The notes beneath the pieces are model-generated. The model was not told where the DNA came from. It made no database searches and was given only the letters and a program-made list of their open reading frames with translations. From a virus (Duplodnaviria; Heunggongvirae; Uroviricota; Caudoviricetes), in the IMG/VR virus record IMGVR_UViG_3300027513_000011, positions 1-64,000 of that record: a stretch of DNA of 64,000 nt, one strand, 5' to 3'. Made by a program: the position numbers and the translations under genes. Shown here piece by piece: positions 8,849-51,031 of this stretch. Numbering within the stretch: the first letter of the stretch is position 1; the number at the start of each line of letters is the position of its first letter.

Positions 8849-9906
8849 CCCTGCCCATCCTCCTCTGACCCTATGCTGTAGGGATCGCTGTCCGGTTCTT
8901 CCTCGGGCATCACGGGTGGGTTCTCGTCCGGCAACTGCACGATCACGTCTAGCGGCTCCCCGTCGCCCAGCAGCGTAGAGGGCAGCCTGCCGTCCCACTG
9001 GGTCAACCGCATGTAAGTCAGAATGTCGATGGTCAGCGACTCCTGAATCAACCTGTTCGCTTCGGCCACACCTTGGCCCTCCAGGATCGCAGCCTGCCGT
9101 AGACCCTCAGCCTCTTTGATGGCCTGCTCGGCCTCGAACTGAGCCTGCTCGACCCGCCTCTTGGCCTCGGCCACGTTCTGCTCAGCGATAACCTTGTCCC
9201 TGACCGACTGCATGAACTCCTTGTCGAACACGGCGTCAGCGACGTTGGCGTAGTCCACGATGATGCCGTACTCGGCCAACTGGCCTGCCACCGCCTCAAC
9301 AATGGACACGGCGAGCTCGTCCCTGTTCTGCGGGAAGTCCTCGGCTGTCACCTGCCCGATCGCAGCCTTGGCGTGCTGGTCGATGGCGGGCTTGATGACC
9401 GTATCGCCGTAGTTCATGCCGACCTCTTGGTAGATCTCGGCTGCGCGCTTGGGGTCGATGTGGACGTTCACCGCGATGGGAACCACGATCTCCTGGAGGT
9501 CACTGCTTTGGGCGTAGAACTTGTCGTAGGTGTAGACCTGTGTGCGCACGTTTACGGGGGTGACGTGCTGGAGCCACGGGATAACGATGGACAGACCTTC
9601 GGGGCGCTCGTCGGGGGATACGCCACCGCTGAGGCTGTACACGACGCCGCGGTGACCCGCAGGGACGAAGGCGAGGGCCGGGGAGACGAGGAGCATGAAG
9701 GCGAGGGCGTAGAGGGCGATACGGAAAGACTGAGCGCCACTAGCCGGCCTCATGTACTCTGTCAGGGGCCGTTGTTCCCCATCCTCGATGACTGGCAGTG
9801 GCTTGTTGAACGCCCTGCGCCGCCTCATCCCCTGCAGGGTGAAAACGAGCGTGATGGCAAGCGGTACTAGCCAGATCGCAGGCCCCACTATGGTTTGGTA
9901 ATTCAT
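8845..9906 (-). CDS. SPFH/band-7 (prohibitin/HflK/C-like) membrane protein
   Basis: two N-terminal TM helices, SPFH-like core then long EA-rich coiled coil (AEQNVAEAKRRVEQAQFEAEQAIKEAE), acidic C-tail. Confidence 0.65.
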   Translation of the reverse strand: MNYQTIVGPAIWLVPLAITLVFTLQGMRRRRAFNKPLPVIEDGEQRPLTEYMRPASGAQSFRIALYALAFMLLVSPALAFVPAGHRGVVYSLSGGVSPDERPEGLSIVIPWLQHVTPVNVRTQVYTYDKFYAQSSDLQEIVVPIAVNVHIDPKRAAEIYQEVGMNYGDTVIKPAIDQHAKAAIGQVTAEDFPQNRDELAVSIVEAVAGQLAEYGIIVDYANVADAVFDKEFMQSVRDKVIAEQNVAEAKRRVEQAQFEAEQAIKEAEGLRQAAILEGQGVAEANRLIQESLTIDILTYMRLTQWDGRLPSTLLGDGEPLDVIVQLPDENPPVMPEEEPDSDPYSIGSEEDGQG

Positions 9907-10784: not shown

Positions 10785-11007
10785 CGAAGATCACCTTATC
10801 TGGTCTGTAGCCCCTTACTCTGTCTATCAAGACCCACCTACATTGAACGGGAATACGATGAGTTGGCCCATCTGAGTAAACATCTATCGACAGTAACACC
10901 TTGTCTGGGTGGGGATTGAGGCTGGTACAAGGTTCACCGATGCCGGGAACATTGTAGTACCAAAAGTATTTCTTCTGTCGGGCGCACACCCATTCATACT
11001 CGGTCAT
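10771..11007 (-). CDS. hypothetical protein (78 aa)
   Basis: ORF track; coupled to FtsH-like gene. Confidence 0.35.
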   Translation of the reverse strand: MTEYEWVCARQKKYFWYYNVPGIGEPCTSLNPHPDKVLLSIDVYSDGPTHRIPVQCRWVLIDRVRGYRPDKVIFDEVV

Positions 11008-13028
11008 GCGCTCAGCACTCCATCCATCTCGTCAAGCAGCTCGTGGATCTCCGTGCCCCTGACCTCGCCCTTGTCCGCGATGAGCCTAGCCACTGCCTCG
11101 ACCTGTGGCACCTTGCTCGTCAACAGAAGCCCCACCTTTTCCAACGCCTCCTCAAGTATCGCCTCGGTCGCCAGCCCTAGCGCAACCTCGTCCTTGTCGT
11201 AACTACCGATCTGTCCACCATGACCGAGGGTGACCATGTGCATTGCCCTCTTTGTTGCTGCCGGGCCGTCTCCGCCGTGACCGTTGGACGCCTGGCCCAG
11301 AATCAACTTCTCGGCCACGCGGGAAGCCAACGAGATCTGCACGTCAGCCAACAGATCCTCCCTGGTCAGCAGCCAGTCATCCCATTTCGAGGTCGGGGCC
11401 ACGAAACCACCCTTGCTCCCTCGTGGCAGAATACTCGCCGTCCAGATGTCCTGGCGGTGTCTGTTCAGGTAGTGGAAGGCAACGGCGTGTCCGGCCTCAT
11501 GCACGGACACGCCCCACACGGCCTCCTGGCGTTCCCACATGTCGCCCGGCTCCCCGAACTTGATGATTGACATGGCCTTGGTCACATCGTCAAAGGTCAC
11601 CACACCCGGCGTGTCCCGACCATCCCTGAACGTCAGCAGCACGGCCTCGTTCACCACGTCCTTGATGGAGGCGCCGGAACCCTGATGGTCGTGGCGAGCG
11701 ATCCAGGCGATGTTGTCCTCGGTGAGTGTGTGGCTGGCGATCTTCCCCAGATACCCCTCATAGGTCCGCTGCCGGCCGTCAGCCCTCGGGTAGTCCACCT
11801 GCACCTTGCGTCCGAACCGCCCAGCCCTGAGCAGCGCCGGGTCCAGCACTTCCAGCCTGTTCGTGGCGCCCAGCATCATGTAGCGGTAATGCGGTGGCGG
11901 GATCGGCTTGAACCCGAGCATCTTCAGCATCTTGTTCAGGAAGCCGCGAGGTTCCTCCATGCCGTCCATCGCGGCAAGGAAGGTGGTGAGCGCCTGGGAG
12001 GACTGGTTGGAGATGAAGATGGGGGCGGGCTCGTCGGGGTCGTAGGGGACACAGCCCTCATAAACCGGAGTTGAGGTAGCGGAGCCGTTGATAAAGCGTT
12101 GGTACGATTCCTTTACCGCCGAGAAGTTCATGCCCAACCTGTCCAGCGTCTCCCCTATCACCCCGCCGCGGCTCCCCATGACATCAATCTCGTCGTAGAA
12201 CACGATGACGCCACCATGTCTACGAGCTTGTTTACGGATCTCCCTGAACAGCATGAAGATCTTGAGCTCGGCTATCCCCATGAAGGTCGAGGCTGTGGCT
12301 CCCGGTGGGTACAGGATCAGAGGCTTGGAGCTCGCGTTGGCCGCAGCCTTAGCTAGATAGGTCTTACCGACTCCGGGCGGGCCATACAGAATGACACCCT
12401 TCGGTAGATACCCACCAGCCTCCTCTACCGCTGTGGCATCGTTAAGTATCCTTACCTGCTCCATGATCGCCTCACGGGCCTTGTCTTGCCCCCACACATC
12501 GTCAAATGTCGTCTGGATGGTGCCGGGCTGGATCACCTTGTACGTTCCCATCCTCACCATCGAGTAGAAGAAGAACACCATGTTGAGCATCGAGAACATG
12601 ACGCTGATGGCGATGGCGATGAAGGTGGGGACGTTCTCGTAGGCGATGGGGATGGTGCGGATCACGCAACTGACAGCTCCCTCGCACTTGTCGGTCAGTG
12701 TGGAGAGGATCGACCCGTAGATGTAGAGGAACACGAACCATGTGAAGAGGCGCTGGAGCCGGATCCAAGCCTCGGGGGGCACGCGCTTCTTGTACCTGCC
12801 CAGGTACTCGGCTGCCCCCTCGTGCCACTTCGCCACGGTGCTGCTGGTGACCAGCAGTGTCTCGTAGACGGACCTCGCCACGAAGAAGGCGAAGGTGAGG
12901 ACAAGGAAGCGTGCCAAGAGGGAGGTCTGGGCCGGCATCGGGTCGGCCCACTCGTTCGCCACCAGCCATAGGGCGATGACCGCCGGTACCTTCAGCTTCT
13001 CGACCAGCGGTTTCTCAACCCGCTTCAC
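11004..13028 (-). CDS. FtsH-like ATP-dependent zinc metalloprotease (AAA+ plus M41 peptidase, 2 TM)
   Basis: Walker A GPPGVGKT, Walker B VIVFYDEID, SRH ATNRLEVLDPALLRAGRFGR, zinc site HEAGHAV, two N-terminal TM helices; start set to GTG ~13028 with GGAAGGG RBS (ORF track extends to 13229). Confidence 0.75.
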   Translation of the reverse strand: MKRVEKPLVEKLKVPAVIALWLVANEWADPMPAQTSLLARFLVLTFAFFVARSVYETLLVTSSTVAKWHEGAAEYLGRYKKRVPPEAWIRLQRLFTWFVFLYIYGSILSTLTDKCEGAVSCVIRTIPIAYENVPTFIAIAISVMFSMLNMVFFFYSMVRMGTYKVIQPGTIQTTFDDVWGQDKAREAIMEQVRILNDATAVEEAGGYLPKGVILYGPPGVGKTYLAKAAANASSKPLILYPPGATASTFMGIAELKIFMLFREIRKQARRHGGVIVFYDEIDVMGSRGGVIGETLDRLGMNFSAVKESYQRFINGSATSTPVYEGCVPYDPDEPAPIFISNQSSQALTTFLAAMDGMEEPRGFLNKMLKMLGFKPIPPPHYRYMMLGATNRLEVLDPALLRAGRFGRKVQVDYPRADGRQRTYEGYLGKIASHTLTEDNIAWIARHDHQGSGASIKDVVNEAVLLTFRDGRDTPGVVTFDDVTKAMSIIKFGEPGDMWERQEAVWGVSVHEAGHAVAFHYLNRHRQDIWTASILPRGSKGGFVAPTSKWDDWLLTREDLLADVQISLASRVAEKLILGQASNGHGGDGPAATKRAMHMVTLGHGGQIGSYDKDEVALGLATEAILEEALEKVGLLLTSKVPQVEAVARLIADKGEVRGTEIHELLDEMDGVLSA

Positions 13029-13082
13029 GATAGTTGTCGCCCTTCCTGTCGTACCCTCCACTGTAACACACCCTAGAGGGTC

Positions 13083-13112
13083 TTGACAACCCACCATTCC
13101 GTGCTGTAAGTT
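13083..13112 (+). promoter_or_regulatory. sigma-70-like promoter TTGACA-N18-TAAGTT; start codon at predicted TSS (leaderless)
   Basis: hexamers read directly; GTG of 13119 gene ~7 nt after -10; divergent intergenic region. Confidence 0.4.
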
Positions 13113-13118
13113 GGATGG

Positions 13119-13409
13119 GTGCAGGAGAACGCGAAAGCCGCCCTTCCTACCCCCGCTGACCTTCTCAGGGCTATCCACGCGGACGGGAACAGGAAGGAGT
13201 GCGCGTTCGTCGCTTGGGCGCGCGATCACGATGACGAGTACCTAGCCCCACTGCGCGAAATCATCTTCGGTGACTCGGTGTCATGGATGAGGGCTGCCGA
13301 ACTGATACAATCACTGGGCATTGACCGCAGCCACACCACCATCGGCAACCATCGGCGCCGGAAGTGTAAGCAGTGCAATGAGTTCTTCCAGCTAGAGGCA
13401 GGCACATGA
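13119..13409 (+). CDS. hypothetical protein, possible HTH DNA-binding (96 aa)
   Basis: first gene of rightward operon; ATGA-coupled to next. Confidence 0.45.
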   Translation: MQENAKAALPTPADLLRAIHADGNRKECAFVAWARDHDDEYLAPLREIIFGDSVSWMRAAELIQSLGIDRSHTTIGNHRRRKCKQCNEFFQLEAGT

Positions 13410-19090: not shown

Positions 19091-19780
19091 ATGCCTCAAG
19101 TATCGAACACTGACGACATCGCCGCCGCTTTGAGCGTTGTCGAAGAAGGTGGCCTGGTCCCTGCTGACGAGATCCCTGGTGCCCCCGACCCGGTTGTCCG
19201 CAAGCTCGCCTATCTGGACGAGATGGATACCGAAACTCTCCAGCGTCTCAGGGAGGCCCGCATCGGGTCGAACCTGCACGCCATGTACATTGCCTGGCGG
19301 CGACGGTCGGCTATCTCCCTCTCCTCCCAGGGCTTCAAGATCAAAGAGATTGCCGCCCTCCTCGACGTGGCCCCAGGCACCATATCTCAGGACTTGCGGC
19401 GGGTCCGCGAGGAGTACGAGGGCCTGACCACCCGTGAATGGGCTGTCATTGTCGAGGAACGCATCATGGAGCTCGACCAGGACATCTTCACCCTGCGTCG
19501 GCAGTTGGACACCATGCCTCACCGCTACATCGAGAGGCCGGCAGATGACGGCGAGGTTGAACTACTGGACATCGGTCCCGACATCGACCAGCAGCTCAGG
19601 ATCCGCGACCGCATCATGGCCCTCAACGACCGGAGGGACAAGCTGCTCGGGGTGGACAAGGCTGCCGCTGCGCGCCACGTCGAGACTAAGAAGCTGGAAG
19701 TGGTGCTCTCGTTCGACCAGACCTCACAGGTGCGGGAGATCGAACCCACCATGATCGAGGCCGAGATAGTCGATGGCTAG
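19091..19780 (+). CDS. terminase small subunit (HTH)
   Basis: HTH IKEIAALLDVAPGTISQDL; immediately upstream of and overlapping large terminase; first ATG at 19091 (ORF track GTG 19073). Confidence 0.55.
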   Translation: MPQVSNTDDIAAALSVVEEGGLVPADEIPGAPDPVVRKLAYLDEMDTETLQRLREARIGSNLHAMYIAWRRRSAISLSSQGFKIKEIAALLDVAPGTISQDLRRVREEYEGLTTREWAVIVEERIMELDQDIFTLRRQLDTMPHRYIERPADDGEVELLDIGPDIDQQLRIRDRIMALNDRRDKLLGVDKAAAARHVETKKLEVVLSFDQTSQVREIEPTMIEAEIVDG

Positions 19781-21221
19781 CCTCGAAATCAAGCTGCCGG
19801 GCTTCCACTCCAAGCAGCAGCACATCTACGACAACATGCGTCGGTTCACCATCATGCGCGTGGGCCGACAGTTCGGCAAGTCCCTGATGGCTGCTGTGGT
19901 GGCGATCATTCGCGCCCAGATGAAGCCCAATCAGGTCATCATCGTGGTGGCGCCGACCTACAAGCAGACTCAGGCCATCTATGGGCGCATCCGTACCCTC
20001 TTGAAGCCGTTGTTCCGGCAGGACATGGGTGACGGGACACTGTTCGTCACCGAATACAAGGCCGACCTGCGCTTCGATTTCCACAACGGGTCGTCAATCA
20101 TGGCTGCCTCGGCCGACAATCCCGACAAGCTGCGTGGCTACTCGATCAACCTCATCATCATTGACGAGGCGGCGTCGATGGACAAAGGCGAGGAGTTGTG
20201 GTTCGAGGTCGTGCGCCCTGCCCTTGCCGTCACCCACGGGGACGCCATGTTCCTCTCCACCCCGAAAGGTAAGGACAACTGGTTCTACCACCTGTGGAAG
20301 CAGTCTGAGTACGACATCGCGGAGAAGGGTGACAACTCCGAGTGGGCCTTGTTCCACTTCAAGTCCACCGACTCGCCGTACTTCTCCGAGGCCGAATCCG
20401 AGGCCATCCGTGCTGTGGGAGAGAACTACTGGCGACAAGAGATCCTTGCCGAGTTCACCGCTCATGCCGGCACCATCATTGGCCCCGAGGCGTTCAAGTA
20501 CTACACCACCGTCATCCAGGAAAGTAACCTCTACTTCCTGCACGGGGCTGAGATGACGCCCGAGGCGAGCTGCTATCGAGCCATGACGGTTGACCTCGCT
20601 CTCACCAAGGGCACTTCTTCTGACTACACCGCCTTCGCTCTAGGGGACATGACGAGGTACGGCACCTGCTTCGTTCGTGACGTGTACCGTGACAAGATCC
20701 TCGGTCCCGACCTTGCCAATAAAATCATCGGGTATGCAAAACGCAATGCAGTCCAGGCCATCCACATCGAGTCCACCGCCTTCCAGCTTACTGTGGTGCA
20801 GGAACTTGAACGACGCGGGGTTACAGTCGCCAAGTTGCCAGCCAAGGGTGACAAGATTGCCCGTGCCTCCCTTATGGGGATCCGCATGAATGCCAGTCAG
20901 TTTCTCTACCAGCGCGAAGCCCCGTGGTTCTCGATGGTGATTGACGAAGTGACCACCTTTCCTGACGACGGCGCCCATGACGACATGGTTGACGCCCTCG
21001 CCTACCTGTCCCACGTTTCTGCCCAGTACGCCGTAGACGCCTCGCCGGCTGTGTTCGGTGGGGTGTCGCTCGATCAGGTTGCCCAAGCGGCTCGCCACAA
21101 TCCGAACGAAGATCGTGAGGTACTTCATGCTACTCTGCGGGTAGAGAAGATGGAAAGGGACCGTCAACGTGCAATGGAACGCGGCGAGATGGCCCTTAAG
21201 AGGATGAGAGGACCGATGTGA
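19773..21221 (+). CDS. terminase large subunit
   Basis: Walker A VGRQFGKS, IIIDEA Walker B-like, C-terminal nuclease-like acidic residues; position before portal. Confidence 0.8.
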   Translation: MASLEIKLPGFHSKQQHIYDNMRRFTIMRVGRQFGKSLMAAVVAIIRAQMKPNQVIIVVAPTYKQTQAIYGRIRTLLKPLFRQDMGDGTLFVTEYKADLRFDFHNGSSIMAASADNPDKLRGYSINLIIIDEAASMDKGEELWFEVVRPALAVTHGDAMFLSTPKGKDNWFYHLWKQSEYDIAEKGDNSEWALFHFKSTDSPYFSEAESEAIRAVGENYWRQEILAEFTAHAGTIIGPEAFKYYTTVIQESNLYFLHGAEMTPEASCYRAMTVDLALTKGTSSDYTAFALGDMTRYGTCFVRDVYRDKILGPDLANKIIGYAKRNAVQAIHIESTAFQLTVVQELERRGVTVAKLPAKGDKIARASLMGIRMNASQFLYQREAPWFSMVIDEVTTFPDDGAHDDMVDALAYLSHVSAQYAVDASPAVFGGVSLDQVAQAARHNPNEDREVLHATLRVEKMERDRQRAMERGEMALKRMRGPM

Positions 21222-37629: not shown

Positions 37630-38112
37630 TCAAACGTGCGTCCATGTCCTCCGAGCCACGATTTGACCCACATTGGTTCGGTCTACCCCGTAAAGCCTAC
37701 CAAGGGTTGCTTTCCTTACGCCCATCGAGGCCAATGTTCTTATCCTCATCACATCTTCTCGGGCGAGCTTGCTGCTCCAGATCCGCTCTCCCCTAGCCTT
37801 CGCTCTCACATACCCCTCATCATTGAAGGGCAGTCTGCCCTTGGCGTAGGCATCCTTCATGTTGTCGCTGCGAGTGCCTTGGAACAAGTGCGCCGGGTTA
37901 CAGCAGGGAGGATTGTCGCAGTGATGACAGATCATTAAGTCGCTATCCAACCCACCGATGGCAAGATCGTATGCGATTCTATGGGCCATCTCTGCCTTGC
38001 CGGCAATCTTGAAGCGTCCGTACCCTGTCGGGTCGGCAGCAGCCATCCAAGGCCAACATTCGTCGTCGCCTCGACTGTCTACCTTTGACCAGAACCTATG
38101 TTCGTAGTCCAT
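37630..38112 (-). CDS. HNH homing endonuclease
   Basis: HHCDNPPCCNPAHL...GTRSDNMKD HNH_3-type motif. Confidence 0.65.
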   Translation of the reverse strand: MDYEHRFWSKVDSRGDDECWPWMAAADPTGYGRFKIAGKAEMAHRIAYDLAIGGLDSDLMICHHCDNPPCCNPAHLFQGTRSDNMKDAYAKGRLPFNDEGYVRAKARGERIWSSKLAREDVMRIRTLASMGVRKATLGRLYGVDRTNVGQIVARRTWTHV

Positions 38113-38208
38113 CTATCCATTCTACCACAGGTGGAGCAGTGGGAAATCGAATCCCAGTCCCGAGCCGAGCCTTCCGGTTTACGGTCGGTCGAACGCCATC
38201 CGCTGCCC

Positions 38209-38484
38209 CTAGCGCACCCGCTCCAGTGTACCGCCGTGGTCGTCCTGTAGCCAGATGTCGCCGGAAGTGTAAATAATGTAGGTCCGGTTGGTTCCTACCC
38301 ATCCCGACCCGCGGGGAATGAACTCAACCCAACGATACGGCCCCTTATCCTCCACGTTCCACTCTTCATCCCATTCTTCAACAGTGTTCAGATCATCCCA
38401 TGTCCCATACTCTGGGAAGGTGCCAGGCTCAACCTCGCACAGCTTCGACACCTTGCGATCACTACTGACTAGCTTCACGTTCAT
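38209..38484 (-). CDS. hypothetical protein (~91 aa)
   Basis: ORF track 38209..38556; internal ATG MNVKLVSS. Confidence 0.35.
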   Translation of the reverse strand: MNVKLVSSDRKVSKLCEVEPGTFPEYGTWDDLNTVEEWDEEWNVEDKGPYRWVEFIPRGSGWVGTNRTYIIYTSGDIWLQDDHGGTLERVR

Positions 38485-38493
38485 CGCTCTTCC

Positions 38494-39018
38494 TTGCTGT
38501 TGCCTATCGTTAGGTACTATAGTGGCGGAATGCCCGCATCCACCATCCACACCCATGCCGCCACCCTAGCAGCCGCCATCTGTGAGTGCATCGGACTGCT
38601 CGACCTGGAGGACTGCGACACCTGCTTCACGCGGGAAACCCTGTGTACCGGCAACTGTCCCCCCAGCCTGGGATGGTGCGGTGGGCCGGAATCTGAATGC
38701 ACCGGCATCTTCGTCAACTTCGTGGGCACTGACATTGACCTTGAGAATCGGTGCAATGTGGGCAAGCTCGCCAAGTACGAGGTTGGGTTGGTGATGTGCC
38801 CCCCAGCTCTACGCAGTGTCACCAATCCTGAGTTCGCCGCCCACCAGGAGTTCGCTGAGTGCATCATGTTTCTGGCCGAGAGCGTGTGGGGCTGCCTGGC
38901 GAATGTCATGTGCGACTGTGCCGAGTCGCTTACTGTCGGTGGCCTCGACATCATCGAGGTCGGTGGAATCCAATGCCAAGACGATCGGTTCGTCATCTCC
39001 GTTTCTGTTAGGGTGTAA
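38494..39018 (+). CDS. hypothetical Cys-rich protein (174 aa)
   Basis: more protein-like than overlapping minus ORF 38517..39146. Confidence 0.35.
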   Translation: MLLPIVRYYSGGMPASTIHTHAATLAAAICECIGLLDLEDCDTCFTRETLCTGNCPPSLGWCGGPESECTGIFVNFVGTDIDLENRCNVGKLAKYEVGLVMCPPALRSVTNPEFAAHQEFAECIMFLAESVWGCLANVMCDCAESLTVGGLDIIEVGGIQCQDDRFVISVSVRV

Positions 39019-42458: not shown

Positions 42459-42729
42459 CGTGCCTTCCCCCTAGTTGGACCCGTATTCTCGGGTGTTCGT
42501 CATCGGATGGGTAGATAGTCAATGAAGATGTCTCCCCAACGGCCAGCACGTCCTCACCGTTGCTGACCCTGTACCTGTGTCCAGTCACATGATCGTCGGG
42601 GCGCCACGTCATAGCCCCATATTTTACCGGCTGGCCCTCATGGATGATCGTCCATGTCTCAAGATTGAGATGTTCGCCATATCCGAATACGTCGATGTCC
42701 TTGTAAAGAGACCTGGCATAGGTGGTCAT
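42451..42729 (-). CDS. hypothetical protein (92 aa)
   Basis: ORF track; coupled to ERCC4 gene. Confidence 0.4.
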   Translation of the reverse strand: MTTYARSLYKDIDVFGYGEHLNLETWTIIHEGQPVKYGAMTWRPDDHVTGHRYRVSNGEDVLAVGETSSLTIYPSDDEHPRIRVQLGGRHDD

Positions 42730-43439
42730 GTTCCTTCGGTTCCTCCGAATGCTCTCAGGATCGCGTCAGCTATCTTAGGCCCAACCCCCGGTATGGCCAG
42801 CAGTTCGGCCCGAGTGCCCTCCCACTTTATCGGTAGCGTGCCCCCTAAGGCCCCCAGGATCGCCGTAGAGCGTTTCTGGTTTACTCCGGGTACACTTTGT
42901 AGCAGAAAGGCAGAGAAGGCGGGAGAACCCACGTCACCGTACCTGCGGTCAACCCTGGCGGTGAGGCCAGAGGGTTCGCCACGCTGGGTGTACTCGTGCA
43001 GTGTCCTCACCACCCGTGCCGTGTCGTTCTGGCTCTGGGACCACTTCACGGCTATCCCGTGGTTCAGCCACAGCGAGAACTCCAGGTTGGTCAACGCCTG
43101 GAGGTTCATGGATCCGTAGTCGTACATCAGCTCGCCAGTCTCGGTGAAGTATGCCTGACCCTCCAGCACCAGATACCGGATGGCGAGCTCCTGCATCTGG
43201 TCGATCTCTTTACCCAACCTCCCGTCGCGGAGGGAGGCTAGGAGGTCAGCTGGGAAAGCCTTGCGCTGGACCCCGACGAGGCCCATGGGTGACCCCCACA
43301 TGAAGTCAGCACCGTACTCTTCGGGGAGGTTGGTGGATTCGCCCAAGGCGCGGAGGGCGGGGTCACGCTCGGCGCCGGAAACGAAGATGGTCACCGGGTT
43401 TCTCGCCAGATCACAACCAGAGTGCCGAACAGGAAGCAC
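42726..43439 (-). CDS. ERCC4-type (XPF/Mus81/Hef-like) nuclease with C-terminal helix-hairpin-helix
   Basis: nuclease-like N-terminal region and IPGVGPKIADAIL HhH motif. Confidence 0.5.
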   Translation of the reverse strand: MLPVRHSGCDLARNPVTIFVSGAERDPALRALGESTNLPEEYGADFMWGSPMGLVGVQRKAFPADLLASLRDGRLGKEIDQMQELAIRYLVLEGQAYFTETGELMYDYGSMNLQALTNLEFSLWLNHGIAVKWSQSQNDTARVVRTLHEYTQRGEPSGLTARVDRRYGDVGSPAFSAFLLQSVPGVNQKRSTAILGALGGTLPIKWEGTRAELLAIPGVGPKIADAILRAFGGTEGT

Positions 43440-43479
43440 AGCGACCCGGCTGCGTAGAACCAGTAGGGAAGCAACCTCA

Positions 43480-44337
43480 TTAGTCAGCCACCACCGACCA
43501 GTTGCCTCGATCCGCCGCCAGTAGGTAGCTCATACCGAACCCTCCCCCATCCTTGCTCTCACCCACCAACAACTGCGAGGTTGACCGTTCCCCCCGGTCC
43601 TTGATGTAGCTAACCACATGACCCACCCCTGTCCTACGGATCAGCATGATGGTGTGAACCTTGTGATCCAGCGACTTGTGACCATCGGGCCTCAGTCCAA
43701 TCTGCCCGTAGTCCAGCCATGCCGAGTTGTCCGGCTTCGGCTTGCCCTTCGGGTTCTCGTAGTGCTCGAAGATCTGCTTCGGCTCAGCGGTGGCGAACAG
43801 GTGGGCGCCCATCTCGACCGACAGTTTGAGCACAATGTCATGCTCCCACAGCCCGAGGAAGGCGTTGCGAATCATGATCCAGTCGTCGGGCTCGATCAAT
43901 GGACCTTTGCGATCCTTGTAGGCATCAGAGAAAGCCCTCTCGAACTCAAGCTCGTCCCTGGTCATGCCGTACTTCTTGTCGAAGAACATGCGTTGGGCCT
44001 GCTCGTAGCCCGTGGATGCGGTGTCGCACACAACCCAGTCTCCGGGCTTGATGACCTCGCGCAGCCCCCGAGCCCACATCTTATAGAGGCGGAAGTCGGT
44101 GGTCTGGGTGACATGCACGTTCTCAAGGTGACCGTAGGCCGACATGGACCGCTTTACGGCCTGGTCAGTATCCGCGACATAGAACTGCTCGCCGGACCCG
44201 AGCTTCTGAACGAGGTCAGCGATGTCGAGCCAGCACTGGGTCTTGCCGCCACCTGCGGGACCGAAGATGAGGAACCGTTCAGGGTCGTAGCCGACATTGA
44301 CGCCGGCCAAGATGAGGTCGGGTGGTTTCAATGCCAT
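43480..44337 (-). CDS. RecA-fold P-loop ATPase (Sak4-like recombination ATPase)
   Basis: Walker A FGPAGGGKT near N-terminus, ~285 aa, Walker B-like VVCDTAS. Confidence 0.55.
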   Translation of the reverse strand: MALKPPDLILAGVNVGYDPERFLIFGPAGGGKTQCWLDIADLVQKLGSGEQFYVADTDQAVKRSMSAYGHLENVHVTQTTDFRLYKMWARGLREVIKPGDWVVCDTASTGYEQAQRMFFDKKYGMTRDELEFERAFSDAYKDRKGPLIEPDDWIMIRNAFLGLWEHDIVLKLSVEMGAHLFATAEPKQIFEHYENPKGKPKPDNSAWLDYGQIGLRPDGHKSLDHKVHTIMLIRRTGVGHVVSYIKDRGERSTSQLLVGESKDGGGFGMSYLLAADRGNWSVVAD

Positions 44338-44339
44338 AT

Positions 44340-44546
44340 CTATCGGCCCTTGTCTAGTTCGTAGGCGCCTTTGTCGGTCATCACTACAAGAACATCGCCG
44401 TTCCTACTCCCCTGAACGTAAAGCCAGTCGGCTAGGTCGAATGTGATAGGAGAGAATCGCACCCGCGCTTGGTGAATAGCAGCGTTGGCGTAGTCCGTGT
44501 GGTAGAAGTGGGTGAATGCCCAGTAGACGGGATTGTTGTCTGCCAT
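44340..44546 (-). CDS. hypothetical protein (68 aa)
   Basis: ORF track. Confidence 0.35.
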   Translation of the reverse strand: MADNNPVYWAFTHFYHTDYANAAIHQARVRFSPITFDLADWLYVQGSRNGDVLVVMTDKGAYELDKGR

Positions 44547-44692
44547 CAGCGTCCCCCTAGTGCTTTCTCGATCAGGTACTTCACAATGGCCGTGAACTTC
44601 CTGGTCCCCAGATTCCTCTCGCCCCAGTCAGCCAGAGCCGAGTGTGTGTTGTCCGAGATCCTGATGGATCGGACGCGAGTACCTTTACTCAT
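44546..44692 (-). CDS. ribbon-helix-helix (CopG/Arc-like) DNA-binding protein (48 aa)
   Basis: internal ATG with ATGA overlap; RVRSIRISDNTHSALADWGE beta-strand then two helices. Confidence 0.4.
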   Translation of the reverse strand: MSKGTRVRSIRISDNTHSALADWGERNLGTRKFTAIVKYLIEKALGGR

Positions 44693-44883
44693 ACGAGCAC
44701 CTTGTTCTTCCTTGCCCAACGATCCCATTGCTTCAGGGTTCGTTCCTCCCCATCCATATCCCACTCTGGGTGAATCTGGGCTGTACCTGCTACAACTTCA
44801 GCGGCTCGGTACACCCCTAGGCCCCTATCCCATAGTGAGAAGATCAGGTAACGACGGAGCGTAAGCCTAGATGCCTTACTCAT
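44689..44883 (-). CDS. hypothetical protein (64 aa)
   Basis: ATGA overlaps on both sides. Confidence 0.35.
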   Translation of the reverse strand: MSKASRLTLRRYLIFSLWDRGLGVYRAAEVVAGTAQIHPEWDMDGEERTLKQWDRWARKNKVLV

Positions 44884-45890
44884 GCGTATCCTTTCGGCCC
44901 CTTCACGTTCAGCCTCCGGCCCTTGGTCTTGAAGTCCTCAAATCCGACACCGTGATCCTTGAGGAACGCGGCCAGCTTCTCTCGATCCTCTTTGTCATAG
45001 GGTGTAATACTAGCAGTGAATCCCGTCAAGGTCTGCACTTTCCCGGCACCCACCCTGGCCTTGATCTTCTCAGACAGCTCAGCCTTCTGCTTCTTGATGC
45101 GGCCCTCATCATCGAGGAGGCTCCGGTACACCATGAGCCAGCCGTCGAGCTCGTCGTCGTCAACCTCCTCGACACCATCCAGCCCTGGCAGGATGGCGAG
45201 ACAGGAGAGGACATCGCGGTGGCTGCACTGCCACTTGTTCGCATCCGGGTCACAGTACGAATTGTCGTAGAGCACGGTGCGGTCGGCGGCGTACCCACCC
45301 ACGATGCGTGCCACTTGCCCCAACCGATCATGAATAGCCGTTCTGCCATACGGGGCCTCCTTGAGAATGGTGATCGACAGCTCCCCGGTGTTCCGGTTCT
45401 TCACCGTGTACAGGACCGGCAGGCCGTGGCATGACATGTAGTGGGAGATCTGCCAGGCGTGGCCGGGATGCTTCGAGAAGGTGGGTACCCCATTGACCAC
45501 CGACTGCATCCACAGCTTGAACTGCGCTTCGGACTTCGACTTGCACTCCCACCCGAACATCGCATCATTTCCCAAGGCCCAGATGCCCTCGTAGTGGCCC
45601 GTAATACGAAACCTCATGTCGCCCACCTTGTAGTCCTGCTCGCAGGTGCCCTGTGGATTGACGAGATGGAAGCCCGGATACTCCTGTTCGATCTTACGGG
45701 CCACGGCCGGCTCGTGTAGGTGACCTTCCTCGGCCGAGATCATCAGAGCTTCGGAAGCTGGTGGAGCCTTGTGGCCGAGAATGAGGGCGGCAATGGAGCG
45801 CGGGCAGTCGCCTAGGGTCGAGGCGCGTAGGTAGATGATGCCGCTCTGAATCTGGACGGGAGGACGGTCGTTGGACTGGTCGAGGGTCAT
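44880..45890 (-). CDS. PD-(D/E)XK exonuclease (YqaJ/lambda-Exo-like) with C-terminal extension
   Basis: DMRFRITGHYEG ... FGWECKSKS (D...ExK) core; internal ATG with ATGA overlap. Confidence 0.5.
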   Translation of the reverse strand: MTLDQSNDRPPVQIQSGIIYLRASTLGDCPRSIAALILGHKAPPASEALMISAEEGHLHEPAVARKIEQEYPGFHLVNPQGTCEQDYKVGDMRFRITGHYEGIWALGNDAMFGWECKSKSEAQFKLWMQSVVNGVPTFSKHPGHAWQISHYMSCHGLPVLYTVKNRNTGELSITILKEAPYGRTAIHDRLGQVARIVGGYAADRTVLYDNSYCDPDANKWQCSHRDVLSCLAILPGLDGVEEVDDDELDGWLMVYRSLLDDEGRIKKQKAELSEKIKARVGAGKVQTLTGFTASITPYDKEDREKLAAFLKDHGVGFEDFKTKGRRLNVKGPKGYA

Positions 45891-46279
45891 CGGATCTTCC
45901 TCAAGGTCACTGTCGCATGAGAGTTCAGGATCATGTGGTTGCTCAGCACGCCTCCGACCTTGGCCGGGTCTGGACCGTACATGCGTACTCCGCAGGTGTC
46001 GCAGGCAACCTCCCAATCGGCGGTGGAGCGCTTTACTGGGGGCTCGTCAACAAGGCTGGGGTAGCGGACGGGTAGGAGATCCCAGTCAACGAATCTGTCG
46101 ACAATCGACTCGACAAACGCCTGGCACTCCGATGTGCTCCATCCGTCAGGGAGCATCAGTTCGTTGTGGAACCAGAAGTTGTAGTCGGCTTCTCGGGAGG
46201 ACTCTCCGTTCTCGTAACCTGTCTCATAGCAGGCCATACATGGCTTGGGAGGGTTAGTGCAGGTGTGTTCGGGCCTCAT
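45887..46279 (-). CDS. hypothetical Cys-rich protein (130 aa)
   Basis: ORF track. Confidence 0.4.
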   Translation of the reverse strand: MRPEHTCTNPPKPCMACYETGYENGESSREADYNFWFHNELMLPDGWSTSECQAFVESIVDRFVDWDLLPVRYPSLVDEPPVKRSTADWEVACDTCGVRMYGPDPAKVGGVLSNHMILNSHATVTLRKIR

Positions 46280-46734
46280 CAGAAGTCTCCCGAGTATCTA
46301 GCTGGTTGTCTGCTGTTGGTTCGTTCGCGATGGCAGTTGGAGCACACCACTTCACACTTCTCAATCTCTAACAGGATCTTGCTAAACGCCATCTTCCGAC
46401 GACGCATGGTAGATATCGGGTACAACTTTTTGCCTTTCTCGGGTATGTGGTCAAACTCCATGACGTATGGTGGGTACTGAATGCCGCAATCTGAGCAGGG
46501 AACGCCCTTGCGCGAGTTGATGAGATTGTCTAGCCCCCTGCCCCGCTTCCTCGCCAGCTTGAAATACCTTTCCTTGTTCCGTCGATAGTTCTCTCTACCT
46601 ATTTCATTATTGCACGGACGGCAATACCCAGCCCGATGAGCGTATACGGGAGCATCCTCACACCTAGGACATATTCTCTCCACTAAAATGCGCCGTCCGC
46701 GACCTGCAAACACGTCAAGCCCAGCCTGCGCCAC
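46279..46734 (-). CDS. HNH endonuclease with zinc ribbon
   Basis: CPRC..CRPC zinc finger plus EFDHIPEKG...VVCSNCH HNH motif; GTG start. Confidence 0.55.
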   Translation of the reverse strand: MAQAGLDVFAGRGRRILVERICPRCEDAPVYAHRAGYCRPCNNEIGRENYRRNKERYFKLARKRGRGLDNLINSRKGVPCSDCGIQYPPYVMEFDHIPEKGKKLYPISTMRRRKMAFSKILLEIEKCEVVCSNCHRERTNSRQPARYSGDF

Positions 46735-47612
46735 ATGGCTACTACCCTGTCCCTGTCATCAAGCACCCATAGCACGTTGTATCGGTCCCTGATGTGGGTG
46801 TTGAAGATCTCCAGCTTCACCTGATCGTCGGGGCGCTTGTCGTCGGCACGACGCATGAACAAAGCGTCGTAACGTATGCCTTGATTCTTGAGCCATTGCT
46901 CAGTGTCCTCGCGGCATGAATCAGGTCGTCCCGACACGAGCAAGGTGCGAAGGCTTCTTTTCCCCATGCTGCATTCGTTGAAATGAAGATCCAGATAGAT
47001 GATTAGGTCATCTATTGGGGTGTTGAGACTGTCAGTGGAGACAAGGCTGTAGTCATAGGGACTACGGTTGTGTAGCGCCAAGGTACCATCAAGGTCAACG
47101 ATGATGGCCTTGCGTAGTTCCTCGTTGTGGACAACAGGTTCAGGTGTCAGTACCGGGTCAGCCGTCAGGTCAGGTGCAGCCGGCAGTACCCCCGCAGCCT
47201 TGATCCCATACCTTGCCGCCGTGTCCCTGATGAACTTCTCGCCCACGGTAGGGACTCGGCCGATATCTCGGCCCACCAAAACATCAAGGGGCTGCTCGAA
47301 GTCCTCAACCCTCACCGTGGCCCCGTACTTGTGGCCCAGCTTCGCCCACTCGCGAACGTACTTGGACTTCAGGTTCATGGCGTCGGCCACCACTGACCGA
47401 CCCGACTTCAGGGCAGCCTCAGCCATCGCCTTCTCGGCCACGGTGATCGACTTCTCAGCCTCGTAGGTGTAGAAGGGCCGACCATGTAGCGACATGCGGA
47501 GGTCGTCACGGTTGACGCGGATCCTGTGCTCCGGGTCGTCGGCAGCCCAGGACCGTGCCCAGGTGGACTTGCCGGAGGCGGGGAGGCCGCGGGTGATGAT
47601 GAGCTCAAGCAT
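46683..47612 (-). CDS. pnkP: polynucleotide kinase-phosphatase (P-loop kinase plus HAD 3'-phosphatase)
   Basis: P-loop GLPASGKSTWA N-terminal; HAD motif IVDLDGT in C-terminal half. Confidence 0.65.
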   Translation of the reverse strand: MLELIITRGLPASGKSTWARSWAADDPEHRIRVNRDDLRMSLHGRPFYTYEAEKSITVAEKAMAEAALKSGRSVVADAMNLKSKYVREWAKLGHKYGATVRVEDFEQPLDVLVGRDIGRVPTVGEKFIRDTAARYGIKAAGVLPAAPDLTADPVLTPEPVVHNEELRKAIIVDLDGTLALHNRSPYDYSLVSTDSLNTPIDDLIIYLDLHFNECSMGKRSLRTLLVSGRPDSCREDTEQWLKNQGIRYDALFMRRADDKRPDDQVKLEIFNTHIRDRYNVLWVLDDRDRVVAMWRRLGLTCLQVADGAF

Positions 47613-48663
47613 CGGCGCCCCATTTCGGTTTCGCATCTCCGCGCGGTTTCAGATCCTTCAGCGCCAGCATGTAGATGTCGGACAGGCTGGCCCCGTCGTA
47701 GAGCTTGAACAGCAGGTGGCGGCGGGGATGATCCTGCGCGCCGATGGCGAAGGACTTGCGATCAGTGGACATGTACTTGATGCCCTCAAACGCTATCTCG
47801 GCATCAGATACCTGCCTCGACGCCTCAGTATCCAGTTCCAGGGCCACTTGCGTAGCCCATCCGTACAGTTCGTCAGGTAGTTCAGCGGCCTTGGCGTCGA
47901 AGGTGTTGCGATCAGGGTCCATTAGCCACTCCCACACCACCCGCTCGTTGAGCCCGAAGATGATCTTGTGGCGGGCCAGGTAGTCGGCCTGCTTCACCTT
48001 CCACATGTGTTGAGGAGGGCCGCATTCGTAGATGACGTAGCCTTCGGCGTTGGTGCGATCGGGTAGGGCTAAGGCGTCACGCGCCTTCATGTGGATAGGA
48101 TAACTGGGAGATATCCACCCAGTATCTAGGCTCACGCCGGCCAGCAGTTTCAACTCCTCAGTGTCCCCGTAGTCGAGCACGATGCGGTTTTCCGGGTAGA
48201 TGATCTCGAACAGGTAGGTGAGGGCGGGCCGCATGTCCATAGCGGCTCTACCCCAGTGTTCCTTGAAGATCTGCCCCCCTCGCACTGCCTGCTCCGACGT
48301 GAACGATCCCCGTGACGCCATGTGCCACTGGTCCCGGTACCAGAACGCTATCCCGAGGCTCCCGTCGTGCTTGTCGGTCACCCACACGTCCTGATCGGGG
48401 TCGAGCTCAGGCGCGCCGGGTTCGCCCACGTTGAAGAACTTGCGGAAGGGGCGGGCCACAACCTCGCCAGTGTCACGATCAGCTACGAGGCCGCGGCAAG
48501 TCATCGTGGTTTCGTTCCAGTGCCGGGCGTAAACACACTGCTCGGTGTAGTTACAGATGTAGAGGGGTAGGGTTGGATGCTTGGCACATCTAACATTGCC
48601 GGCCTGTACCTCAGCGTCTAGGTCTGGTGCGATATCGAGGACAAACACCATCAGGACTGCCAA
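47605..48663 (-). CDS. RNA ligase (ATP-dependent, nucleotidyltransferase fold)
   Basis: motif I KHDGS, motif IV AEGYVIY, motif V WKVKQ; directly upstream of and overlapping pnkP. Confidence 0.65.
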   Translation of the reverse strand: MAVLMVFVLDIAPDLDAEVQAGNVRCAKHPTLPLYICNYTEQCVYARHWNETTMTCRGLVADRDTGEVVARPFRKFFNVGEPGAPELDPDQDVWVTDKHDGSLGIAFWYRDQWHMASRGSFTSEQAVRGGQIFKEHWGRAAMDMRPALTYLFEIIYPENRIVLDYGDTEELKLLAGVSLDTGWISPSYPIHMKARDALALPDRTNAEGYVIYECGPPQHMWKVKQADYLARHKIIFGLNERVVWEWLMDPDRNTFDAKAAELPDELYGWATQVALELDTEASRQVSDAEIAFEGIKYMSTDRKSFAIGAQDHPRRHLLFKLYDGASLSDIYMLALKDLKPRGDAKPKWGADA

Positions 48664-48826
48664 TCCTTAGCAGCTTCTCGGAGAACGGCAGCCAACATGA
48701 TCGCTGTCACGATGCCAAGGCTGGTACCACCCACGTATAGGTTCTCACCTTCAATGATGTCAGTGATGAAACCGGCCAGTGAGAACCCCCACATACCTCC
48801 GAATATGATTCTCCAGATCAGTCCGC

Positions 48827-49519
48827 TCATCCCATCTCCTCCCTCGTGTCGAACCTTCCGTACTCCTCAGCCTTCTCCACCGACGAGAACACGAACAGCA
48901 CCATCGCGTGCCAGGCCACATGCGAGACATGAGGCAGGCCGCTATCCGGGTCCAGATCCTCGCCTTGAAGGAACGCCGACAGGTGCCGCATCAGGGCCGC
49001 GTAGGACAGCGACCAGTCGTAGCCTCTTCGCCAGTTGTTGTCACCGTAGATGCCGGCGCCGAACCCGCAAACCTCGGCCAGTGCCCATAGGAACCGCTGG
49101 TCGATGAGGTCGAAGCGAGCTGACTTGGTGCCCTTTTTACCCCCGGTGTCGGAGGTAACGATGTCGCGCTTGGCCTTTTCGTAAGCCTCGCGGTACTCGG
49201 GGTTATCGAGGCGTTGATTTAGATACCTCTCTGCCCCTGTTTCCTCACAGGCTTCACCGTATCCACATTCACATTTCCATGTTGCTTCGACCTCGATTGG
49301 GGATACGGGTTCACAGTTGGGTGGATCTGCTAGGCACCCGATTGCCTCACCGGTCCAACTGGTGTGCAGCATCTCCTGAGGCACCATTTCAGTTTCCCCA
49401 TCCAGCGTGTTGATGAACTTGCGGCGAGTCTCGTTACGGGGCTTGCAGTACTGGCACCGACAGTCCATGTTGAAATTGTGTTCCCCCATGACGTGGTGCC
49501 ACCATGCCTCCTCGGTCAC
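48827..49519 (-). CDS. hypothetical protein with conserved phage C-terminal domain (230 aa)
   Basis: N-terminal Cys-rich region; C-terminal RFDLIDQRFLWALAEVCGFGAGIYGDNNWRRG domain. Confidence 0.45.
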   Translation of the reverse strand: MTEEAWWHHVMGEHNFNMDCRCQYCKPRNETRRKFINTLDGETEMVPQEMLHTSWTGEAIGCLADPPNCEPVSPIEVEATWKCECGYGEACEETGAERYLNQRLDNPEYREAYEKAKRDIVTSDTGGKKGTKSARFDLIDQRFLWALAEVCGFGAGIYGDNNWRRGYDWSLSYAALMRHLSAFLQGEDLDPDSGLPHVSHVAWHAMVLFVFSSVEKAEEYGRFDTREEMG

Positions 49520-50097
49520 GGTGCCACCAGCTCAACGAACTCGTCCCATCCGCGCACCACCTGATACCTCTCGTCCCTCTCCATGATCTCGAACGCTCCC
49601 CAGTTATGCGCCTGGCCGAACAGCACCCCGTTTCTATGCTCCCTCACGTTGTCGGGCCTGTCGTCAAGCAACCACAGCCCATCAGTGTTCTTCTTGTCGC
49701 CCTTGCCCTGGAACCAGATCGAGTGGTACGGGATCTTCCATTCCTCCAACCAGGCCGACGTGTTGGCGATGATCTGGGCGTGGAACATGGGCCAGCCCAA
49801 TCGCTGGGTCACGATCCTGATGCGGTAGCCGGCCTCATCGAGCCTGCCCATACCCTCCACGGATCCGTCGATTGGGAACCCTTCGCGGAAGATGTACTCA
49901 GCCGCCAGTCCTTTCTGCACCCAGCCATTGAACTCGGCATCCGACATGTTCCAGTCCACAGTCGGGAAGTTCCAAGTGGTGGCCTGACGCGGGTACCTCT
50001 TGAACGAGTCGTGAAAGATGAAGTCGGACACGACCTCGGAGAACACGGGGTACACCACGCCGTCAAGGTCGATGTCGATAGTGGGTCGGTCAGTCAC
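49516..50097 (-). CDS. HAD-family 5'(3')-deoxyribonucleotidase
   Basis: DIDLDGVV HAD motif I at N-terminus and overall NT5C-like layout; GTG start overlapping upstream stop. Confidence 0.6.
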   Translation of the reverse strand: MTDRPTIDIDLDGVVYPVFSEVVSDFIFHDSFKRYPRQATTWNFPTVDWNMSDAEFNGWVQKGLAAEYIFREGFPIDGSVEGMGRLDEAGYRIRIVTQRLGWPMFHAQIIANTSAWLEEWKIPYHSIWFQGKGDKKNTDGLWLLDDRPDNVREHRNGVLFGQAHNWGAFEIMERDERYQVVRGWDEFVELVAP

Positions 50098-50269
50098 GGA
50101 GCTCCTTCTTGACCTCTACAGAAGCCCACCATGCGCCGGTAGCAGTGTAAACCCTGATATCACCTACAGTCTCCCACCCGAACCACGCGCCACCTAAACT
50201 GTTCCGAAGCCTTCGGATAGCCTCATCCTTTGTGCCGGCGCTGGATTCTGCATTTGCTGTAACCTTCAT
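50090..50269 (-). CDS. small hypothetical protein (59 aa), first gene of leftward island operon
   Basis: ATG with AGGAGAAGGG RBS 6 nt upstream; stop overlaps GTG start of next gene (GTGACTGA); below ORF-track cutoff. Confidence 0.4.
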   Translation of the reverse strand: MKVTANAESSAGTKDEAIRRLRNSLGGAWFGWETVGDIRVYTATGAWWASVEVKKELRD

Positions 50270-50295
50270 GCCCTTCTCCTGTCGCTCGTCACAAC

Positions 50296-50324
50296 AGCGT
50301 ACTACACCGTGGCGGGAGTGTCAA
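50296..50324 (-). promoter_or_regulatory. promoter TTGACA-N17-TACGCT for leftward island operon
   Basis: hexamers read on minus strand ~20 nt upstream of RBS. Confidence 0.4.
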
Positions 50325-50533
50325 GAACGCGACTCACCCCCCGCGCAGATCAAACGGGGGGTGAGTGCGGTGCGGCCGTCTTGCGAGGGCTGCGATATAG
50401 CGGCTCAAGGAGGCGACTGGTCGTTACATGCCTCTGCTAGCGAGGCCCCCAGCCGTCTGAACTTGTTGACCGCTAAGACCACTTTATCACAACCGCTTGC
50501 ATTCTGTCAAGAGGACATGTAACGTTACCTGTC

Positions 50534-51031
50534 GTGATTGAAACTGATACAACAATGCCGGTCAATGTCCAAGACTATTCAACGATAGATACTGATTGCA
50601 CCGGCATCCACGAGGAGCCGGTTACCATCACCCCAGGGTGGCGGAACCGAGCTATCTGCTCTGAGGAAACCTACGACCAGTTCTCGTGGTGTGGGGAGAG
50701 GGCCAAGTCCAGGCCCTACGAGAAGGCTATCTGCTGGGAGGAGTGCCCTGTCCGTAAGGAATGTCTCACCGAGGCGATAGTCCAGATGGAGAAGCACTGC
50801 ATCTACGGGGGTTACAACTTCGGACAGCGGAGACTCATCTGGCGTAGGTGGAAGGATGCCGGCACTCTCCCTGACGTGGAGCGCACCTATGTGAACGCCG
50901 AAGAGATGTGGCGTTTGGCTACCGAGTCCTCGACCTCGCGTTATGCCGAAACAGTCAAGCCCGCCCTTGATTACGAATACGACGAGCCCAGCGAGCGACA
51001 ACTCCGGGCCATAGAGGACGAATCCTCATAA
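50534..51031 (+). CDS. whiB: WhiB-family Fe-S transcription regulator
   Basis: four Cys including CWEECPVRKECL (CxxCxxxxxC) as in WhiB/Wbl. Confidence 0.55.
   Translation: MIETDTTMPVNVQDYSTIDTDCTGIHEEPVTITPGWRNRAICSEETYDQFSWCGERAKSRPYEKAICWEECPVRKECLTEAIVQMEKHCIYGGYNFGQRRLIWRRWKDAGTLPDVERTYVNAEEMWRLATESSTSRYAETVKPALDYEYDEPSERQLRAIEDESS

Follow-up and report, generated by a model that had tools for sequence, protein, structure and literature searches.

Overlapping genes for a predicted T4-type RNA ligase and polynucleotide kinase-phosphatase in a divergent uncultured tailed phage

The locus and its genome

The DNA analysed here (the window) is a stretch of 64,000 nucleotides (nt) from a tailed phage of the Caudoviricetes, positions 1 to 64,000 of IMG/VR record IMGVR_UViG_3300027513_000011. 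Two overlapping genes on its minus strand (-) are described, which are predicted to encode an RNA ligase and a polynucleotide kinase-phosphatase (Pnkp). A preliminary description of the window, made from the letters and a list of open reading frames (ORFs), had named the two as an RNA repair pair; both ORFs were found where it had placed them, on the minus strand and with the motifs that it had quoted. The two genes and their junction are as follows.

47605..48663, minus strand: Rnl1-type RNA ligase, predicted (PF09511, phrog_562, fold match to T4 Rnl1)
46683..47612, minus strand: T4-type Pnkp, 309 amino acids (aa), predicted (PF25109, PF13671, phrog_505)
47605..47612, minus strand: 8-nt overlap ATGCTTGA, with the Pnkp ATG within the ligase 3' end (direct reading)

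The window has a guanine plus cytosine (G+C) content of ~60% and reads as phage DNA, with TerL, WhiB and a 1447-aa tape-measure-like protein. The same sequence was found again on two independent metagenomic contigs (ENA ERZ27267613; Logan SRR5468956), and the public gene calls on them match the map used here. A nucleotide search of the locus (46200..50300) against deposited phages gave no match. The nearest isolate by TerL (19773..21221, +) was Thermus phage TSP4, at only ~26% identity. The window is a new, very divergent genome carrying the repair cassette. An actinobacterial host is suggested by the presence of WhiB together with the 60% G+C.

Polynucleotide kinase-phosphatase

The translation of 46683..47612 contains the motifs RGLPASGKSTW (P-loop) and VDLDGTLA (HAD). 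PF25109 (HAD_PNKP) was matched across the whole profile (E-value 1.2e-44), AAA_33 (PF13671) at 5.7e-19 and phrog_505 at 8.4e-92. These matches, like those of the ligase below, go well beyond chance and bear out the layout given in the preliminary description, a P-loop kinase joined to a HAD DxDGT phosphatase. Pnkp1 of the bacterial Pnkp1-Rnl-Hen1 complex (Capnocytophaga gingivalis, 4xrp/4xru, PMC4411300) was the best solved match in the PDB sequences (4xrp, 1.4e-37, full length), and T4 Pnkp (1ltq) was matched at 7e-30, with 37% identity between the window and T4 proteins.

In the numbering of the 309-aa protein, the kinase site comprises GLPASGKS, the general base D36, R39 and R119, and the C-terminal DxDxT HAD motif of the phosphatase reads D173-L-D175-G-T. 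Alignment to pseT showed that the T4 kinase residues K15, S16, D35, R38, E57 and R126 are kept, as are all the T4 phosphatase residues (D165, D167, S211, K258, D277, D278). The phosphatase residues are essential or catalytic in T4 Pnkp (PMC3592404), and K15, S16, D35, R38, D85 and R126 are essential to its kinase (PMC2831316). Five of these six kinase residues are identical in the window protein, the exception being D85. The start at 47612 is supported because homologues start there and because the ATG overlaps the ligase stop. On this evidence 46683..47612 is predicted to encode a T4-type polynucleotide 5'-kinase/3'-phosphatase, with an N-terminal kinase and a C-terminal phosphatase. A homologue was found in 2372 records of the phage collection searched.

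RNA ligase

The product of 47605..48663 matched PF09511 (RNA_lig_T4_1) above the cut-off (E-value 5e-14; 53.1 bits, cut-off 28.3) and phrog_562 at 8e-61. T4 Rnl1 (2c5u, 1e-9) was its sole meaningful sequence match in the PDB. Translation may start at TTG 48663 (352 aa) or at ATG 48651 (348 aa), the latter being used by the public contig calls. Motifs I (TDKHDGSLG), IV (NAEGYVIY) and V (HMWKVKQ) are present in the translation, and the nucleotidyltransferase motif positions were invariant in 43 homologues. On alignment to T4 Rnl1, motif I residues K98, D100 and G101 fell on T4 K99, D101 and G102, motif III residue E153 on E159, motif IV residues E207-G208 on E227 and G228, and motif V residues K222/K224 on K240 and K242. 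Upstream of motif I, R57, K75 and F77 are conserved at the positions of T4 R54, K75 and F77. These three, with K119, are reported from mutagenesis to be the Rnl1-specific essential residues of the T4 enzyme.

An AlphaFold2 model of the ligase, built on the alignment of these homologues (predicted local distance difference test score, pLDDT, 93) consists of a nucleotidyltransferase domain and an all-helical C-terminal domain, the C-terminal helices spanning residues 226-337. The model was compared with the PDB using Foldseek. T4 Rnl1 ranked best (E-value 1e-16, full length, 389 aligned columns), followed by fungal Trl1 (1e-10), Rnl3 (4e-8), Rnl5 (2e-6) and Rnl2 (3e-5). The modelled ligase has the same overall fold as T4 Rnl1, including the helical C-terminal domain. 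DNA ligases were marginal, at E-values of about 0.01.

The preliminary description had proposed, as grounds for abandoning the ligase, that the motif I lysine or motifs IV and V be absent on proper alignment or that profile searches return a DNA ligase. The motifs are kept and align with T4 Rnl1, the closest fold is that of T4 Rnl1, and its RNA ligase call stands. DNA-ligase identity was ruled out on the same fold comparison. From profile, alignment and model, 47605..48663 is predicted to encode an Rnl1-type (T4 RnlA-like) ATP-dependent RNA ligase. Its nearest known relative is 71% identical and is followed by a HAD_PNKP gene; homologues of the ligase were found in 1316 records of the phage collection.

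Overlap and linkage of the two genes

A GGGG run resembling a Shine-Dalgarno sequence lies 5 nt upstream of the Pnkp ATG. Translational coupling of the ligase and Pnkp is suggested, because the Pnkp start codon falls within the end of the ligase gene. The same head-to-tail overlap was seen in Arthrobacter phage Seahorse (gp81/gp82), in Dactylosporangium roseum and in contig L214.

Linkage was determined in 80 viral and 80 cellular loci with relatives of the ligase, which were searched with the proteins of the window. In 70 of the 80 cellular loci the gene immediately after the ligase, on its strand, was a Pnkp homologue; a Pnkp homologue no more than 6 kb off was found in 74 of them. Among the 80 viral contigs it lay within 6 kb of the ligase in 38, nearly always on the same strand and usually downstream. 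A joint heal-and-seal function is supported by this linkage, which is tight both here and in the relatives.

Several actinophages are known to carry such pairs: Seahorse (gp81/gp82), the Arthrobacter cluster AQ, Streptomyces phage Muntaha (gp180/gp185) and mycobacteriophages of cluster E (CrystalP, for example). The nearest actinophage relatives are 38-42% identical in the ligase and 42-50% in Pnkp. The Pnkp of mycobacteriophage Omega and that of Cjw1 were reportedly the subject of biochemical characterisation in 2004 (Zhu, Yin and Shuman). In Seahorse an 'RNA ligase' (gp81) overlaps a 'polynucleotide kinase' (gp82) in the same order as in the window, whereas the flanking genes are entirely different. 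Only the two cassette genes are common to Seahorse and the window, with no wider synteny found beyond them, and a second 'RNA ligase' of the 2H/LigT type, like Seahorse gp74, was sought in the window and not found. Because the two share nothing else at this place, it is the two-gene unit that is conserved. The two genes thus travel together strongly as an overlapping unit, between flanks that are otherwise unrelated.

Comparison with T4 and with bacterial Pnkp1-Rnl-Hen1

The pair resembles Pnkp (pseT) and Rnl1 (rnlA, gp63) of T4 in enzyme families, in the domain order of Pnkp and in catalytic residues. It differs in gene arrangement: the window genes overlap, whereas those of T4 are separated by alc and pseT.1-3. 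T4 Pnk and Rnl1 together reverse the cuts that PrrC makes in tRNA-Lys (PMC2610378). Adjacent genes for an RNA ligase and a Pnk have been noted in the Arthrobacter cluster AQ phages (PMC5513430), the actinophage pair has been read as tRNA repair and counter-defence (PMC5511906), and in a phage survey Rnl1 or Rnl2 ligases with PNK-HAD proteins were treated as standard RNA repair equipment (PMC7824862). In the literature searched, no recent phage paper joining RNA repair with anti-defence was found. Publications and the routine annotation of actinophages already cover both enzymes, the way they pair and their interpretation as counter-defence, and no new question is opened by them. The window adds one very divergent, uncultured and probably actinobacterial phage to the many with a T4-style repair pair.

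The Capnocytophaga complex differs in its ligase. The window ligase is of the Rnl1 type, and no 4xrp/4xru chain was present among its sequence matches or among the 50 fold matches listed. No Hen1 or other methyltransferase was found beside the pair among the genes of the leftward string, by Pfam, PHROG or the public gene calls. Immunisation of the repaired junction by 2'-O-methylation is not expected, because there is no adjoining Hen1 and because the ligase is Rnl1-type. An FkbM-type methyltransferase domain was found in a 485-aa protein (4212..5669, -); it is the sole methyltransferase among the scanned proteins, bears no likeness to Hen1 and is distant from the pair.

Chromosomal cassettes of Actinomycetota

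Overlapping genes for an Rnl1-type ligase and Pnkp are also present on the chromosomes of many Actinomycetota, for example Dactylosporangium roseum (CP073721). These cassettes resemble that of the window in gene families, gene order and overlapping stop and start, with 41-46% identity. They differ in their cellular context, beside rpmE-prfA. In 44 of the 80 cellular loci the cassette adjoins rpmE (L31), prfA (RF1), prmC and tsaC; these loci are from Micromonosporaceae and some metagenome-assembled genomes. The cellular cassette is apparently vertically conserved in a translation-related chromosomal position. No description of it, or of its function, was found in the searchable literature, and we consider this cassette, beside translation-factor genes in Micromonosporaceae, more useful than the phage finding itself.

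A further proposal is put forward only tentatively and is rather doubtful: that the cassette is a laterally exchanged module from a core, translation-linked locus of Actinomycetota, and that the phage copy is directed at an undescribed RNA-cleaving defence or toxin of actinobacteria. If this were true, the cellular cassette would mark an uncharacterised housekeeping pathway for the repair of translation RNA.

Proposed function and alternatives

The active sites of the P-loop kinase, of the DxDxT phosphatase and of lysine adenylylation in the ligase are intact, and the healing and sealing enzymes are both encoded, overlapping, in one tightly packed leftward string. The two genes probably constitute a T4-type heal-and-seal RNA repair cassette, which would restore translation RNA cut by host nucleases. 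By analogy with the T4 enzymes, the phosphatase domain of Pnkp would form an Asp-phosphate intermediate in removing a 2',3'-cyclic or 3' phosphate, and the kinase domain would phosphorylate the 5'-OH with a nucleoside triphosphate. The ligase would then adenylylate itself on K98, pass the AMP to the 5'-phosphate and seal the break. During infection the pair would, as in T4, restore RNA of the translation apparatus, most likely tRNA anticodon loops, cut by a host abortive-infection or toxin nuclease. A role in counter-defence can reasonably be inferred from the action of the T4 pair against PrrC. The overlapping pair travelling together supports the general view that phages are commonly under pressure from attacks on translation RNA.

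Several observations weigh against this interpretation. Identity between the ligase and T4 Rnl1 is only 26%, and the ligase reached 52.3 bits with the NCBIfam equivalog TIGR02308, against a cut-off of 242; by the NCBI standard its sequence is that of a family member and not of a T4 RnlA equivalog. Because of the low identity and the TIGR02308 shortfall, the same substrate preference as that of T4 Rnl1 cannot be assumed. T4 Rnl1 K119 is replaced by R118, a conservative change that is also present in Seahorse and Muntaha. At the position of T4 D85, Pnkp has Ala, with an Asp one residue earlier ('VADAMN'). The window protein shows 'D-A-x-N' there, like Pnkp1 of the Capnocytophaga complex, whose solved chain has 'IIDATN', and Seahorse and Muntaha have 'DD'. 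Both substitutions, that of K119 in the ligase and that of D85 in Pnkp, occur in relatives. The cassette is, moreover, a core chromosomal locus beside rpmE-prfA in many Micromonosporaceae. Its place as a core locus in many actinobacteria means that nothing intrinsic makes the cassette a phage counter-defence device, and general RNA maintenance, not anti-defence, may be what it mainly does.

General maintenance would mean that the cassette was captured from the housekeeping locus and repairs tRNA, rRNA or mRNA cut by toxin-antitoxin, stress or phage nucleases. We regard this, the main alternative, as possible, although unlikely. It is favoured by the cellular loci described above, in which the overlapping pair stands beside rpmE, prfA, prmC and tsaC and not in a prophage context, and by the identities of the window proteins to cellular copies (41-46%), which are about like those to phage copies (36-43%). 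The C-terminal domain of T4 Rnl1 is considered to guide that enzyme towards tRNA, however, and the Rnl1 C-terminal helical domain is conserved in the window ligase. The presence of the ligase in many unrelated phage lineages (the 1316 records given above) also fits a role in conflict. General maintenance and anticodon repair are compatible, in that the mechanism is the same and the range of substrates wider.

It is improbable that Pnkp serves instead to heal DNA breaks with 5'-OH and 3'-phosphate ends for downstream nucleases or recombination proteins. T4 Pnkp works on DNA ends in vitro, and the leftward string runs on into genes for an HNH endonuclease, a Cas4/RecE-like exonuclease and an ERCC4/HhH nuclease. 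The conserved partner of the kinase is, however, an RNA ligase of the Rnl1 clade, from which DNA ligases are remote by fold, and the DNA-nuclease neighbours are not kept beside the pair in related loci.

A role in maturing, repairing or circularising an RNA of the phage is very improbable. The window does encode one structured tRNA-like RNA, at 38129..38209 (-), which resembles the tRNA-like domain (TLD) of transfer-messenger RNA (tmRNA) and would be the candidate substrate, but it belongs to another gene block, 9 kb from the pair. Moreover, no ligase or Pnkp gene was present in the fetched stretches of 46 other viral loci with TLD-only RNAs; no scan for the RNA was made in the related ligase loci.

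Attachment of tail fibres, the second activity of T4 gp63, is hardly credible as the main role of the ligase: phrog_562 and several RefSeq records bear the name 'RNA ligase and tail fiber protein attachment catalyst', but this product name is inherited from T4, the gene lies in a non-structural leftward operon coupled to Pnkp, and most close homologues are in bacterial chromosomes without phage context.

Neighbouring genes

The repair cassette lies within a leftward string of ORFs, from ~50269 to 46279, in which stops and starts overlap as far as an HNH gene. The other features of the string and of the region upstream of it are as follows.

50481..50510, written 50510..50481, minus strand: TTGACA-18-TAAAGT, second consensus match (consensus scan)
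50296..50324, minus strand: TTGACA-17-TACGCT promoter-like element, ~27 nt upstream of the first ORF (read from the sequence, and consensus scan)
50270..50533: divergent intergenic region, 264 nt, common to whiB and the leftward string
50090..50269, minus strand: 59-aa ORF, first of the leftward string, no product named (ORF list; called on public contigs)
49516..50097, minus strand: NT5C-like HAD nucleotidase (PF06941)
48827..49519, minus strand: 230-aa protein with a PF18909 domain (PF18909, phrog_801)
48651..48830, minus strand: 59-aa hydrophobic ORF, directly upstream of the ligase (ORF list; called on public contigs)
46279..46734, minus strand: HNH endonuclease, overlapping the Pnkp 3' end (phrog_2255, 9e-26)

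The preliminary description had grouped the repair pair with enzymes of the nucleotide pool as one theme. Its HAD 5'-deoxyribonucleotidase at 49516..50097 was upheld, PF06941 being matched above the cut-off (6.6e-13, 49.4 bits against 24.8, profile positions 2-164 of 180), with a DLDGV motif. The protein had no NCBIfam match and no meaningful PDB sequence match, and is predicted to be a HAD-superfamily, NT5C-type 5'(3')-deoxyribonucleotidase-like protein. The product of 48827..49519, which had been called a conserved phage protein, is more than that: it matches phrog_801 (1.9e-39), and residues 124-211 match PF18909 (DUF5664-type, dATP/dGTP diphosphohydrolase N-terminal domain) at 3e-30. Its N-terminal half is Cys-rich (CRCQYC... 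and CECGYGEAC). Only the PF18909 N-terminal domain model was matched, no MazG-type domain being detected in this protein, and its comparison with PDB sequences gave no informative match. The 59-aa ORF between it and the ligase (48651..48830) had no family match in Pfam or PHROG searches and is possibly a small membrane protein, judging from its hydrophobic sequence.

The remaining member of the proposed theme, a MazG-like enzyme at 7826..8191, is a weak call: PF03819 scored 14.3 bits against a Pfam cut-off of 22. A partial match to phrog_229 (9.5e-6) was its sole other match, no NCBIfam match was obtained, and the gene is ~40 kb from the cassette. Co-occurrence was examined in the 160 related ligase loci for the NT5C, DUF5664, 59-aa, HNH, 130-aa and Cas4-like neighbours. 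Homologues of NT5C and DUF5664 were present in none (0/160), and the HNH gene alone recurred, in 2 of the 160. A larger module of RNA repair plus nucleotide-pool functions was considered and dropped, because only the HNH neighbour, in those two loci, travels with the ligase; the single theme of the preliminary description is not supported. Probably the NT5C-like, DUF5664 and HNH genes share a transcription unit with the cassette and are not its functional partners.

The product of 46279..46734 is probably a homing-type endonuclease, outside the repair chemistry. Streptomyces phages Comrade and SparkleGoddess likewise have annotated HNH genes next to the RNA ligase. Farther downstream, the same leftward block holds a Cas4/RecE-like exonuclease (44880..46016), an ERCC4/HhH nuclease (42726..43439) and a P-loop protein without a family match (43480..44337), all on the minus strand. 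The genes of 42726..46016 look like a recombination or repair module.

Divergent intergenic region

The TTGACA elements upstream of the leftward string may be regarded, as a weak lead from the sequence, as promoter candidates; promoter-like matches in the divergent region were no more frequent than in shuffles. Positions 46000..50700 were scanned for repeats and terminators, and nothing above chance was obtained except a short palindrome in this region. The palindrome, GACAGGTAACGTTACATGTC (20 nt, 50514..50533), adjoins a TTGACA hexamer. A 9-bp G+C-rich hairpin, CACCCCCCG...CGGGGGGTG, is located at ~50330..50365, between whiB and the leftward operon. The palindrome and the hairpin may be operator or regulatory sites.

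A tRNA-like-domain-only RNA

The preliminary description had reported no tRNA genes. This is correct for canonical tRNAs, none being found at Rfam gathering thresholds, and incomplete in that the TLD-like RNA of 38129..38209 (-) is present. ARAGORN called a 95-nt 'tRNA-Ser' at 38130..38224 (-), the sole tRNA-like gene, and Rfam at gathering thresholds gave nothing at this call. A sensitive local scan identified tmRNA (RF00023) at 38129..38209 (-), with 37.7 bits and an E-value of 2.8e-13 (1.2-kb search). In this RNA (~81 nt), the 316-nt mRNA-like and pseudoknot part of RF00023 is replaced by 21 nt forming a short hairpin. Its acceptor stem carries G3:U70 and its end is ACC; a T arm and the D-loop analogue of tmRNA (..GG..UUCGAC) are also present. 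The RNA is placed between an ORF (38209..38556, -) and an HNH endonuclease gene (37630..38112, -).

A pattern search with this architecture yielded 46 further IMG/VR contigs, with G+C contents of 30 to 70%. Covariation was seen in the alignment at the closing stem and at the free positions of both the T stem and the acceptor stem. Of the 47 sequences, 44 form all three free acceptor pairs, which occur in 16 different combinations. No match was obtained by blastn with the RNA against deposited phages. A 'TLD only' RNA has been described in mycobacteriophage DS6A, with the suggestion that titration of SmpB inhibits trans-translation (PMC4131195), and no other precedent was found. By sequence and predicted structure, the element at 38129..38209 (-) is a tmRNA tRNA-like-domain-only RNA, of a little-studied kind. 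It appears from the gene content of the fetched stretches to be unrelated to the repair cassette, because no homologue of the ligase or Pnkp was present in the 46 viral TLD loci. We consider this RNA, with the 46 similar viral elements, more useful than the repair cassette itself.

Other genes in the window

The window also encodes an FtsH-like protein of 741 aa with an AAA ATPase and a Peptidase_M41 domain (11004..13229, -) and an SPFH/Band-7 protein of 353 aa (8845..9906, -). The bacterial FtsH and SPFH/Band-7 families work together at the membrane. Both proteins are unusual cargo for a phage.

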